This document shows positions 19,674 to 28,700 of a stretch of 64,000 bases of DNA, in pieces. Under the pieces are notes generated by a model. That model was not told the DNA's origin. It did not search any database and saw nothing but the letters and a program-made list of their open reading frames with translations. Within the stretch, counting starts at the first letter, position 1. The number at the start of each line of letters is the position of its first letter. The stretch comes from Balanoglossus misakiensis (lineage: Eukaryota; Animalia; Hemichordata): the NCBI GenBank assembly GCA_040954595.2, contig CM082592.2, positions 8,047,677-8,111,676 of the forward strand, written 5' to 3'. A program made the translations under genes and the position numbers.

Positions 19674-19733
19674 CTATTTCATACATATTGGCTGATTGGG
19701 ACAGTACCGCACAGCTTGGGGAAACAGCCATAC
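19674..19733 (-). CDS. BRIP1: BRIP1 probable terminal coding exon 31
   Basis: Strong acceptor tttgtttgttttcag then [25 protein letters not shown] about 180 nt downstream. Confidence 0.65.
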   Translation of the reverse strand, partial: VWLFPQAVRYCPNQPICMK

Positions 19734-22700
19734 CTGAAAACAAACAAACAAAACAAAACAAGAACATGAGTACATTTTGCAAGGGTATAAACACTTGACA
19801 AAACTGCATTTTGTACGGATATACAATAAAATTTTGTCAATTTCCTCAAATGTTTCTTTTTTTACTATTACTATTTGGGCATGTAAAACACATGGATCAG
19901 AACTTTGTTGAAGAAACTGATATTGTAGGTGTGAGATAACACAGGGTACGAAGATTAGGCAAACATTGCGGGAATGTATAAAAGCCACAGCTTGGCCGCA
20001 AAGATGAGCGTGTTCGTAATAAACGCAACCTGTTTTTAATTTTAAGTTTTACAAACATCATGACCCAAGTACAGTTGTTACAGAATTGAATACCAAACCA
20101 CGTGTGATTAACCTTGCCTTCTCCCATTGAGATTTTACGACCCAGGTTTTCATACTCATATAAAAGGCACACATTTCTCAACTTCAAATAATTGTCCGAT
20201 AACCACACCATGATTGTTATTTTACGATAAATATCATTTACACTTTAATCCGGTTGCAGCTTTTGATAGGCTGCACCAGATGTGTGTGGCGGTCATCGTA
20301 GTAGAGAGACTAAGAGTTTCATGAGGTGACGAACCAATGAATGTTGGTAGTGAACATGACGTTTGTTCATTCCTTCACTGCAGTGGCAACCCATAAAAAT
20401 ATCCTGACACACATCACAGGACAACATGCAAACCCTAAGGTTCAAAGATTCACACAAGAAATAAATAAATAAATAAATGAATTATTCACGCAAACTTTTC
20501 CATCAATGAAAAATAACATACATGTAGCAATATCAGCATTGTGGCATAAGTTGACGGGCGCATGACACATTTTTTTCCCCTTTCATTTGAGGTTGTCGCA
20601 CGACTGAGCAATATACGACGATCTGTTTTTTTTTCCGCTCTGTGGAGAAGCAGACGGTATATCCATTGAGCATTGCCTAGTAACTGTGAAACACGACCAC
20701 TGAAATGCCCACCCCTCCTCCTTCATCCGGCGACAAAGGAGGTGAGAACGATGGAGATTTCACAGGTATCGACTCACAAGTGACAATCTGAGCGCGACAA
20801 GGACAATGCTCGCCGCTGGAAACTTTAACGCAGATGGCAAGGGACGGGGGTGTTAATGCACCAGTGTGTTTGATGGCACTTGACGTCGCAATCAGAGAAA
20901 AGGGGAGAAAAAAAAGACCACTTGATATGAGGAGATGTAGTTTGTCTCTCGTTGTATGAAACGCGATGGTCAGTCAGACAAAAGAAAGATGCATTTTATG
21001 AAGCGGTTCAGGGATGATAACAAAAATGATTTAAAAAAATAAGCAGGCAAGAGGATTTTTTCTGGTTAGAATATTTGGACTCGATTTTTATGGTTGAAGG
21101 TTTTGTCAAATTATGTATGATTATACTGTCACGTTTTTCAACAATTTTTGGCCAATTTTATGGGAAAGAGTTCCTACACCAGTTGTGCTCTAGCTCAGAG
21201 TAAATAGCTTTGTAATTTTATTTCTATAAAAATGTAATTATCAAAAAAAACATGAATTTTTAACGCCCCATAATTTTCAAAGAACTTAATTGTCATTACT
21301 CCTTGCACCAGCTGTTGTTGATGCCGTCAGTTATATGTGGAAAAAGGCAAATACTGCCCGTTGTAAAACAAAACAATACCATCCAAGTTATTTTATACCG
21401 CTGTGAGATATATTTTGCCCTTTATCTGGATGCAGAATGGTATACACACAAAAAATATAAAAAGTGACATCGATTGCTATTTACATATCCTGTCACCATG
21501 ACGATTGTAGTGTGGTTCACACCGGTTTAAAAAAAAAACACCTCAGGAAAAACAGGAAGCTGTCATCCCAGAGAGGAAAAAGGAAAAGCTGAGAAAGTCA
21601 GTAAGATACCGGAGTGACAAACAGAGGCAGGTAGCTACTGATTGTTCCTTTAATTACCAAGTATCCTGGATTTTCACACAATGGGTGACAAGATCAGAGA
21701 CTTATCATCACACGGTGTTTGATGAGCTAATGGCAGTGAAAAAACAATACAGCAGCTGCTCAGGGGGAAAACTACCCCTCCTCCTCCTCCTCCAACCCCC
21801 CCCCCCCTGCTGTGCTGATTTCATCTGCCTCTGAGTCTCCAAGGCATGTCTGTGATGATTTCTAACTGATCAAAGAAAAACAACGAAAAAGATCCCCACC
21901 CCACAAAACAAACCAATACAATCAGCTGTTGTATTCACTTCTGTTTATAATACCATTTACCCTTGTGTCTAACAATCATTATCAACAGACAAAGATGGAA
22001 ACAATCGCTAATTACTGCCACCATGAAACGCCCAGATGTTCTGATGGGAGATGCGGGCAGAACAGCCTCTCTTGCAAAGAATGCATGGGGGAGTTGAAAA
22101 TGAACAAGGGAATCCAGATTAACAATTTTCACCCGGTAATCACATTGTCCATGATTACAACATCGGTTTAAAAGAATTATAAGCTGACCGTGCGAAAACA
22201 AAGAGGTGAGAGAATCAATGGCAGAGGACAGACAAACAATGGAAATGATACCATCATTAGATCTCAAATGTTAAAAAGAGTAGTTGTTGTTTTACAAAGG
22301 CTACTTTGTCTCTATTCAATCAGTCGTTTGCTTAATTACAATTATAAATCCGTTCTCTTTGCTGACTACTAAGTTGACAAGTGTGAGAGTATTTTATTTT
22401 TACAGTTTTGTTCTTTGTATTTCAACTATTTGTATAATTTTTTCCCAAATCTACAGCAGGATGAATTAACCAATCTTGTTTCAGTGTTTAAAATGTGTTC
22501 TTTGATTAGGGTAGCTTTGTGAAGTTCAGGAAAATATTTGTTATCGCAAATTTCTTGGATAAATAATTTTGTTCTAGACATCAACACATCAAGTACACAT
22601 GCAAGTACATGTAGTTTTTTTAATCCATTCCAAACAGTTTACTGAGATGCAAAGATGCTAGATGTGGCCCTGCTAGAAATGTCCACTTGGGGGCGCCATA

Positions 22701-25700: not shown

Positions 25701-28700
25701 CTGGAAGGACAGAAATAGGGACAATTCCCCAGGAATATATAAGCGAGAGAAAGGGGAAAAAATCAACATTATTGACACAGCTACTTAAATTTGTCATCTG
25801 AGGGGGCATGGATAAATGAAAGACATATGATAATTTAATGAAATTTCTTTGTTAAGGAGGAAAAAATGTTTGTAGCTGTACTGTACAAGTTTTTAGCCAG
25901 AATATGCGTGGGGCAGATATTGCTACAAGGAAGAAATTTCACCGTAATTATAAACATCATTAGTCTACTTTAGAGGGTACCTGGGTACTTTATTTTGGGG
26001 TTTGGAAAAAATATATATCTCCATGTGAGGTGCCCGTTCGCGAAAGTTCAAAGCACGAATACTTTGCGGCATTTTCGCAGGACAACATGGGGTTTGAGGT
26101 CAAGTGCAATTAGTGTTGATCATCGTGCACATTAGTGACCCCCCCCCCCCCCCCAGCAAGATAAAATAAACTGCACAGAAACCATTTTTTTAAAAATTAG
26201 TTTTGCCCGAGTACATGCCTCCGTCCACCAGCTGTGGCTTTGGCATGCCGATGTGACAATTAATGGCATTTATCCACGGTGAATCATTAGCCACGCGCAA
26301 AAACCTAATACCAAAGTACGTGATTTCTTTAAAACAGAGCACACAAGTACTTGGTCACAGATAAATTGTCTGTTTTCTGGTCGGAGCCACAAATTAGAGT
26401 TGGTCAGACCTTGAGACAGAAAAACACTTGGAGCTACAAAGCTGTAGGAAGTAAAAGTTGGCCATGTACTTTGTTTTCAAAACAATTCAGGTTTTTGCAA
26501 CGGAATCTCAGTGGCTGTAATAAATTTTAATAATTAAATTTTAGTCCCTATATCATCAATTTCTGAGGCTAGTCCCTTCTCCTATTCCTTTTAAATACTG
26601 CAACATGAAAAAAGTTACATTTGAGTGAGTCAGTGGTTTCATTTCCTTGTTATCCAAACCAGGAAATATAGGTATTGAATTTTTACGTCTGGTCAGCAAA
26701 CAGTCTTTCCTTTAAGGGTCAAAGCCATTTGAGAGATTAGCGAGTCCTCTTGAGAGAAGACACGGCTCAAGGAAATCTCTGATGGCTCCTACAACCGTGA
26801 TTATTTCAAATGGTTGAAAAGACACGCAATAAACACAAAAACCCTGACCAAACGCTGGGAGATGTATATTTGGCGAGACGCAATAACGACTTCCACTGGA
26901 AATCTTTCATCCGTCGTCGTCATCGGTGATGATGATGATTAAACCTACCCAGCTGAGAAACCAGACATGAGTCGCACTTCACGCAGTAGACGCCCGGTCT
27001 GCAAGGTTGGCTCCCCGCGCGGCTGTCACCCTGCAAAATGTAACAAAAAAAAACCACCATGCAAATGATACCCGTAATTAGCCACATTAAACAAAGGGGA
27101 ACGTCACGTTTCCCGTCCCGGTCTGGTTCCTTCGCTCGCGATGGTTTCTGGACGAGCGTGATTTAACGCCAAAACACCGCGGCCTAATGAAGTTAATCAC
27201 GTGGCGGGGCAGCGTAAACAGGGCACATCCCGGGAGTTCGCCCCGTAATCGTACTAATTATTCACAAACGATTTCCCCCTCTTTGCTGAAAGGTACTGGC
27301 ATTTTGTCAGATGTGTTCATGTTTACCGACTTCCCGAACGTCTGCAGCAATCAAAGTCATTTCACTAAGGGTGCATTTTGACCGCTTTACGACACAGTTC
27401 TTCTTCAACAAAGTCTGACAAGGTTGTGATTATATGATACATGTATGACAAAGTCTACGGTCGCATATATTTCATGGGGATAATCTATTTCTGAACAAAT
27501 TCATATCTGGCTTCACATACATACATGTAGTTACACACACACAAGCTCGTGAGCCTCGCTCGCTACTTCGCGTTATATCTTCATTTAATCTTTACAGAAG
27601 GCTCGCCTCAAAGACACGGACGAAGCTGAGTGTCCCTTGTCCGAGAGATAAACCCCTTGGGGAGTTCTCCTGCGTTGGATAATCATCAGTAATTTACAAA
27701 AGTTTGGAATTGTCTTCTAAAATTAATTGTGCCCTCTGTCTCAGACTTTTTATTGGGGGCCTCCTTCACCCCCTTTTTCAATTTGATGACATTTGCACTG
27801 CGAGCATTAATTTGACAAAAAAGCATTCTTCCAAGGAGATTAGGACACTTTCATAATTTATTACGTCGCGCAGAGCTTCAGGTGATGACAAACAATTCAA
27901 GGCGTATGTCAGTTTCTTCCACTAGTCAGGTTTTGCCCAGGCTGCACGTGCAGAATTGGACTGTTTAGTCGCTTTCAGTGGATTTGGCAGCCTCTGGTGT
28001 TACGTAAATATTCAACGCCGCTAATCTCTGCAGATTTTTCAATCAGTCAGAGTGAATCTGGACAGAATTGTGTGAATGGCAGCAGAGAATAAAAGATAAG
28101 CATGCATTTTTAATCATGCGCCTTATACCATTTTCGATGTATACCGGCAGGAAACACTTCTGAGTTCATGATTTCAGAAAATGACAGCGGATATTCATCA
28201 TTTCAGAAACAATTTTTAGGGGATAATCTAATCTTAACCCACAGTCTTTTTGGGATATCAATTTGCATATCTGTGACATCACCAGGCAACAACTCCAAAA
28301 ATTTGTCTCATGTTCGCATCATCTGTCTTTGTACAAAAGTTTTGTATACTTTTGCAAGTTCTCCTATACTATATATGTTGCCTAGCGACTTGAATCCACG
28401 AGTACTGCCTTAACCACCACGTTCACGGAAAGACACAACCTGAAGATTTCAATTAAACGCTTCTCACCTGAAGCACAGGTTCCAGTTTCACACTATCCAG
28501 CTCATCCAGGAGATCCACGCTTCCCTTGGCAGTTTTACAGAGTTTTCCCTCTTCCTTGCCGCCTCCGGTGCCTTTCCGCTTCCTCCCCCTGGGCGTCTTC
28601 CGGAGGGGGGCACTCACTTCCGAGGACTCGGCGCCGCAGTCCGTAGCCTCCCCAGCCTGCCCTTTGCCGGCAGACAGCAGTCTGAAGAGCCGCTTCCTAT

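Follow-up and report, generated by a model that had tools for sequence, protein, structure and literature searches.

Human FANCJ (BRIP1) is a helicase of 1249 residues that ends in a flexible tail (residues 891–1249), left unresolved by cryo-electron microscopy (cryo-EM), and the word 'zinc' occurs nowhere in the main text of the paper describing that structure (PMC13490418). The beta-tent, a fold of two packed beta-meanders, comprises the families with which FANCJ is compared here, namely Mis18, Yippee proteins such as YPEL5, the cereblon CULT domain and the C-terminal domains of RIG-I, MDA5 and LGP2 (PMC4287342). In the hemichordate Balanoglossus misakiensis, the FANCJ gene lies on a stretch of 64,000 nucleotides (assembly GCA_040954595.2, contig CM082592.2, positions 8,047,677 to 8,111,676 of the forward strand), referred to in full as the window. 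Its product resembles the human protein in that the helicase core is orthologous and a disordered tail comes after it, but differs in 179 further residues encoded by four additional exons. These residues form a conserved end domain, predicted to be a zinc-pinned beta-tent. That it works as a grip on a tether, holding a peptide of a partner and thereby taking the helicase to where it acts, is a proposal to which we give even weight.

The helicase core is encoded by about 20 exons on the reverse strand (29964..50124, start ATG at 50124), which are collinear with isoform X1 of Ptychodera FANCJ in a tblastn search. Exon 30079–29964 continues into a large, low-complexity tail exon of 1192 nucleotides (28468..29659, reverse strand) in a single frame that is open across the chain; the tail exon has a basic motif near its end and 41% identity to Ptychodera residues 895–1317. 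Its donor at 28467 leads to the four exons of the module, all on the reverse strand, whose residues are numbered here on the 179-residue spliced product. Module exon 1 (26949..27030, 82 nucleotides) carries an extra cysteine, C10, and the first CxxC knuckle (C16/C19), while exon 2 (25485..25700, 216 nucleotides, phase 1-1) encodes a variable insertion with the CxC motif of deuterostomes (C58/C60). Exon 3 (24869..25050, 182 nucleotides) contains the conserved Asn104, an acidic loop, the second CxxC knuckle (C120/C123) and a hydrophobic-Gly strand, and is separated by a phase 0 intron of 5.1 kb from the coding part of exon 4 (19674..19733, 60 nucleotides), with the conserved Trp162 strand, the extra C171 and the stop. 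A candidate polyadenylation signal, AATAAA, recognized from sequence only, is found 183 nucleotides past the stop (19486..19491, reverse strand). All four module exons have AG acceptors and the first three have GT donors; their phases (0-1, 1-1, 1-0 and 0-stop) fit together, and their sum of 540 nucleotides corresponds to 179 residues and a TAG codon. When the 472 AG dinucleotides in the span are ranked by pyrimidine content, the four acceptors take places 15, 2, 1 and 15. Read-through at donor 28467 meets a stop at 28453, 15 nucleotides inside the intron, and a short form ending there may exist in this species; judging from orthologues, the module exons are probably spliced in B. misakiensis.

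The attribution of these exons to FANCJ is supported by both ends of the gene. Helicase exon 30724–30560 shows 84–89% identity to the FANCJ proteins of three acorn worms, the closest among the best 120 of 1216 matches, and the named top matches are FANCJ or 'DNA 5'-3' helicase' records at 63–89% identity. These matches, together with the collinearity with Ptychodera, point to an iron–sulphur (Fe-S) superfamily 2 (SF2) core of the FANCJ type and not of the RTEL1, DDX11 or XPD type. The tblastn collinearity with Ptychodera isoform X1 spans the entire gene, the four end exons included, for which the expectation values (E) are, in order, 0.15, 4.7e-5, 2.8e-14 and 2.2; the spliced module aligns with the Ptychodera FANCJ tail at 43% identity over 178 columns (E 1e-46), and Ptychodera isoform X2 lacks exactly module exon 2. 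When both the window and the Ptychodera row are kept out of the profile, the spliced module scores 68.9 bits, compared to 8.1 bits for the best of 1000 shuffles. Since exon 3 is the only one significant by itself (42–45 bits, with 7.6 bits for exon 1, 8.2 bits for exon 4 and exon 2 outside the top 8 of the profile search), the assignment of exons 1, 2 and 4 depends on the collinearity with Ptychodera X1. A first-pass annotation, made from the DNA alone, had described four exons splicing in frame to about 180 residues as part of FANCJ, with widely spaced CxxC motifs and other quoted motifs, and had contrasted them with a disordered end in human BRIP1. Coordinates, splice ends, product and motifs were all verified, the helicase-exon matches and the collinearity bear out the link to FANCJ, and the human tail is indeed described as disordered from residue 891 to 1249 (PMC13490418).

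Conservation of the domain was counted over 39 non-redundant rows. The two separated CxxC knuckles expected of a beta-tent are nearly invariant, with the four cysteines kept in 39, 38, 39 and 39 of these rows, and C16, C19, C120 and C123 would hold one zinc. Asn104 is present in 34 rows, an aromatic residue at position 107 in 36 and Trp162 in 29; Asp or Glu occupies positions 109–111 in 49–56% of rows, and G137 and Q160 are further conserved positions. A second group of cysteines follows the division between clades. All 15 deuterostome-type rows (13 named or from the window, two fish-like) have an added cysteine ahead of the first knuckle as well as a CxC within the insertion, and 13 of the 15 also have a cysteine past the last strand by pattern match. 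The corresponding numbers among the 24 rows of other type are three for the pre-knuckle cysteine and none for either the insertion CxC or the post-strand cysteine. In the window these residues are C10, C58, C60 and C171, and the simplest reading is that they possibly constitute a second zinc site in deuterostomes.

Structure predictions were obtained for the domains of two orthologues, from Ptychodera (predicted local distance difference test, pLDDT, 72.5; predicted template modelling score, pTM, 0.72) and from a grass (pLDDT 76.3), and each was compared with 48,161 solved chains. The Ptychodera model matched the Mis18 Yippee domain (Z 9.9, root-mean-square deviation (rmsd) 2.6, 99 aligned residues), YPEL5 (Z 8.7), Mis18-alpha (Z 8.6) and cereblon (Z 7.4), and the grass model the same four at Z 9.4, 9.1, 8.5 and 8.2. 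Beneath cereblon, both models list DUF427, MsrB and MSS4, which are further families of the fold (PMC4287342), with RIG-I-type domains at Z 4.9–5.6. The two packed meanders and the strand order of the beta-tent are present in the predicted models, and beta-tent proteins fill the top 19 places for Ptychodera and at least the top 11 for the grass, over 88–107 residues. Foldseek placed the same proteins first, with a best E of 1.3e-3 for Ptychodera (YPEL5 at the top) and 1.6e-3 for the grass. In sequence comparisons, the grass sequence aligned end to end with the Pfam family PF03226 (Yippee-Mis18) at 17.3 bits and E 0.0053, in a run in which two of 20 rows matched, and another run gave E 0.1 for two of 13 rows. 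The PF03226 gathering cut-off of 26.6 bits was not reached by any domain row scanned, no other Pfam family reached its own cut-off in these rows, and the single exons of the window gave no match. A sequence search of solved structures returned best E values of 0.4 and 0.31, with MsrB, MSS4 and Mis18 at a non-significant level only, while an ESM Atlas search gave just secretin look-alikes below 0.9 and nothing usable. The models of the two orthologues and the Foldseek ranking thus favour the Yippee/Mis18/CULT-type beta-tent that the first-pass annotation had suggested, and the module is predicted to be a zinc-pinned beta-tent and a candidate zinc binder. The domain behaves as a beta-tent, yet by membership tests it is no member of Yippee, Mis18 or CULT.

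Comparison with the individual families shows where it departs from each. The Mis18 Yippee-like domain (MeDiY; PDB 5hj0, 5j6p and 7sfz; PF03226) shares the predicted topology and the two spaced CxxC motifs, at Z 8.5–9.9 and rmsd 2.4–2.9 over 88–99 residues. Nonetheless, identity is 10–22% and under the Pfam cut-off, the FANCJ domain has 30–70 extra residues between its knuckles, and it ends a helicase whereas that of Mis18 precedes a helical bundle in a centromere factor. YPEL5 (PDB 8qbn_Y) has the same predicted fold, but is a free subunit of the CTLH ligase with a basic pocket, in contrast to the acidic loop and aromatic-free cage strand in FANCJ. Cereblon CULT (PDB 4v2y and 7bqu) shares the predicted fold and the zinc pattern at Z 6.9–8.2; the FANCJ domain stands outside a ligase and, by conservation, does not have the three-tryptophan cage. 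On the strand corresponding to that cage, as identified from the model, aromatic residues make up at most 13% at positions 136–142, and positions 138 and 140 are mostly Ala or Val.

In all beta-tent families the binding site lies between the beta4-beta5 loop and strands beta5-7 (PMC4287342), and in the three families structurally nearest to the FANCJ domain this groove engages proteins or ligands (PMC4287342, PMC4818781, PMC13355314). By strand order in the models, Asn104, the aromatic residue at 107, the acidic loop and Trp162 fall on the beta5-7 cradle. A grip on a basic peptide is favoured because these residues would occupy that site while the cage strand is Ala/Val. The cradle would be lined by the end of the Asn-x-x-Trp strand, the acidic loop that follows it and Trp162, and would suit a peptide rich in Lys or Arg. 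By gripping such a partner peptide, the domain could bring the FANCJ helicase to its site of action, and the flexible tail of about 400 residues would allow docking some way from the motor. In vertebrates, the fate of the donor that follows the basic motif would decide on the domain, which splicing would include and read-through would drop.

Between the two ligands raised by the first-pass annotation, peptide binding appears preferable to DNA binding, as the conserved surface suggested by the alignment is acidic and aromatic and not basic. A domain that binds DNA ends, single-stranded DNA or G-quadruplexes (G4) and senses substrate for the motor, as RIG-I's regulatory domain does, is an unlikely alternative with several features to recommend it: RIG-I likewise combines an SF2 helicase with a C-terminal beta-tent, both fold searches list the domains of RIG-I, LGP2 and MDA5, and the window and birds alike have a basic stretch just upstream of the domain. 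RIG-I-like C-terminal domains have a conserved basic face that binds nucleic acid. No such face is apparent in the FANCJ domain, as read from sequence columns and not from a surface map: Lys/Arg reach at least 40% in only three well-occupied columns (2, 43 and 121) with no cluster, the net charge has a median of +1 (range -8 to +9), and acidic residues characterize the conserved loop. This missing basic surface makes nucleic acid the less favoured of the two options. RIG-I-type domains also score 3–4 Z units under Mis18 and YPEL5, the tether is long, flexible and of low complexity, and the human protein, which does not have the module, binds G4 by way of its Fe-S domain (PMC13490418). It is improbable that the domain instead pairs with itself to make FANCJ dimers, as would be suggested by the Yippee-like domain of Mis18, which forms homo- and heterodimers (PMC4818781) and ranks first by structure in each of the two wide searches. 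The first rank of Mis18 does not single it out, because YPEL5 follows within about 1 Z unit, and a homodimer prediction for the sturgeon domain with zinc scored 0.00 in both runs, with the alignment unused and the fold uncertain, and is evidence neither way.

Slightly less probable again is a role as ubiquitin-ligase adaptor or small-ligand sensor, after the model of YPEL5 in CTLH and of the cereblon CULT domain, by which the turnover of FANCJ or of proteins bound to it would be governed. YPEL5 and cereblon come close in structure (Z 7.4–9.1) and recruit substrates through this groove (PMC13355314), but the strand past the second knuckle, which bears the cage in CULT and Yippee (PMC4287342), has the few aromatics noted above, and the basic pocket of YPEL5 is at odds with the acidic loop here. 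Another alternative would leave the module exons outside the FANCJ message, which would end by read-through at 28453, and make them a silent remnant or a separate gene. The position of that stop just inside the intron, four AATAAA/ATTAAA hexamers before 27030, the short read-through forms of birds and sole, and the annotation of the domain as a separate protein in coelacanth, sturgeon, Diadema and several birds agree with it. This is nevertheless highly improbable: all phases are in frame, the acceptors are strong and module exon 1 has no start codon. Moreover, named FANCJ records from Ptychodera, Acanthaster, Antedon, Octopus, Haliotis, Montipora, chicken and Panicum show the domain in fused form, and intron-free contigs of corals (5.3–5.6 kb) and grasses (2.9–5.4 kb) hold helicase and domain in one frame.

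Several considerations weigh against a peptide-gripping beta-tent. Both Foldseek runs miss an E of 0.001, and Z scores of 9–10 are just modestly over the 7–8 that, according to the tool, unclear cases typically reach. Both models belong to orthologues and not to the window's own product, and they are not fully independent because they have alignment rows in common. The window has Leu where Trp107 is conserved, and, given a mean column identity of 21–28%, the conserved residues may be structural. Cradle residues were assigned by strand order. Pockets within the fold vary too much for a partner to be predicted (PMC4818781), a shared fold shows no function, and many lineages seem to manage without the domain. 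Both the partner and the binding of zinc are put forward as proposals only, as are all functional steps.

Among animals the domain is widespread. A search of 1.84 billion proteins with a profile of 13 rows yielded 61 representatives. The FANCJ helicase motif is present in 16 of the 17 matches of at least 700 residues; the remaining one, from Diadema, probably reflects a split annotation, its counterpart being a Diadema FANCJ that goes no further than the helicase. Eight matches of at least 300 residues have no helicase motif, three of them resembling FANCJ tails and five not, and short matches, read by eye, are single exons running on into introns. The 16 representatives that were looked up include coral, oyster, Solemya, snail, abalone, octopus, ribbon worm, sea star, crinoid, sea urchin, sturgeon, sole, coelacanth and eagle. 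A protein of Montipora capricornis (P0190, 629 residues, 'uncharacterized') shows 89% identity to the coral FANCJ tail and module without a helicase motif, and is either a partial duplicate or an assembly artefact.

The first-pass annotation had further suggested that the module was lost in vertebrates, which is wrong, because birds, alligator, coelacanth, horn shark, sturgeon, sole and goby have it. A search with bird and coelacanth sequences gave 23 matches, comprising 19 named birds, one bird-like sequence, coelacanth, alligator and horn shark; no mammal was among them, and as the same search also missed the known sturgeon and teleost domains, absence from mammals is not shown. In vertebrates the domain is often part of a longer splice form that the curated entry does not represent. 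Chicken isoform X1 (1448 residues) has it, and the curated chicken entry (1252 residues) equals X1 up to the basic motif and ends five or more residues into the intron of X1. Annotated short forms do not prove loss, since birds show both short and long forms. The domain was absent from the fetched proteins of amphibians (17 of 17), squamates (7 of 7), turtles (6 of 6) and arthropod type (8 of 8), several of which are partial, and it reached at least 20 bits in only 19 of the best 120 of the 1216 helicase-exon matches. Lizard and turtle isoforms (P0187, P0042, P0103 and P0116) join the downstream exon of the long bird form and stop early, which looks like decay or incomplete annotation; that of Pogona (P0187) retains a worn first knuckle. 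In fishes (horn shark P0307, sole P0254, sturgeon P0193) a further, long low-complexity stretch separates the zinc module from the basic motif, with about 150 residues in sole and 440 in shark.

Two remaining suggestions of the first-pass annotation, a similar C-terminus in some plant FANCJ proteins and an ancestral origin of the module, have been strengthened by metagenome data. Eighty loci were collected by their helicase motif and scored with an animal-only profile, for which reversed sequences gave up to 9.2 bits. The domain was found in 11 of them at 22–86 bits, including four grass transcripts (E 3e-9 to 1e-7), one of which clusters with FANCJ records of Panicum virgatum. Among the remaining 69, many break off early or contain introns, and some are complete frames without a detectable domain. 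One grass transcript retains an 81-nucleotide GT-AG intron of phase 0 right before the last hydrophobic strand, at the same codon as the 5.1-kb intron of the window. The shared motifs and the shared intron point to an origin of the domain before plants and animals split. Five algal-looking loci (L045:5796-9158, L055, L058, L062 and L073) have a domain-like tail by eye with a broken second knuckle; at 5.6 bits or less they fall under the reversed control of about 9 bits and were not counted.

With regard to the surroundings of the gene, exons of a protein with cadherin and EGF repeats, matching the Pfam Cadherin and EGF families, occupy 53830–63672 on the reverse strand. This protein has a likely membrane helix near 54643–54957 and an acidic tail at 53831–54562, and its end lies about 3.7 kb upstream of the FANCJ start. 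Between positions 1 and 19650, none of the 93 stop-to-stop frames of at least 62 residues matches Pfam at E 0.001, a search that short exons would escape, and repeats near the module exons are unremarkable. The FANCJ tail exon (28468–29659, reverse strand) contains a Thr-Pro-Pro-Leu-Phe-Asp motif that is kept in acorn worms and is similar to a motif of birds; presumably it also resembles the TOPBP1-binding phospho-site of the human protein.

In the literature on FANCJ/BRIP1, Yippee, Mis18 and the fold, outside subscription journals, figures and supplements, no description of this domain was found, and the available text of an Arabidopsis FANCJ paper (PMC6550410) and of a review (PMC6947026) contains no such domain. 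The new elements are a beta-tent family on a well-known helicase, a grass orthologue with a shared intron and the division of the extra cysteines between clades. It would be the tenth or so beta-tent family and, within the literature searched, the first on an Fe-S DNA helicase. FANCJ/BRIP1 is a much-studied gene of Fanconi anaemia and cancer whose tail has been treated as disordered, and the presence of an old, folded domain at its end alters how the family is seen: FANCJ of plants, invertebrates, fishes and birds includes a part that the human protein is missing and for which there is no Pfam model. There is no direct bearing on human variants; results obtained on chicken, fish or plant FANCJ may nonetheless involve a domain absent in people, and split gene annotations can be corrected. 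Taken together, the observations allow a more comprehensive view, held with slightly less than even confidence, in which FANCJ carried a beta-tent 'reader' before plants and animals diverged, deuterostomes added a second zinc site, and vertebrates use one donor to switch the domain on or off, by splicing or by read-through, the short form being that of human FANCJ and of the curated chicken entry. If this were true, an ancestral targeting function of FANCJ, and the partner that it involves, would have been overlooked.

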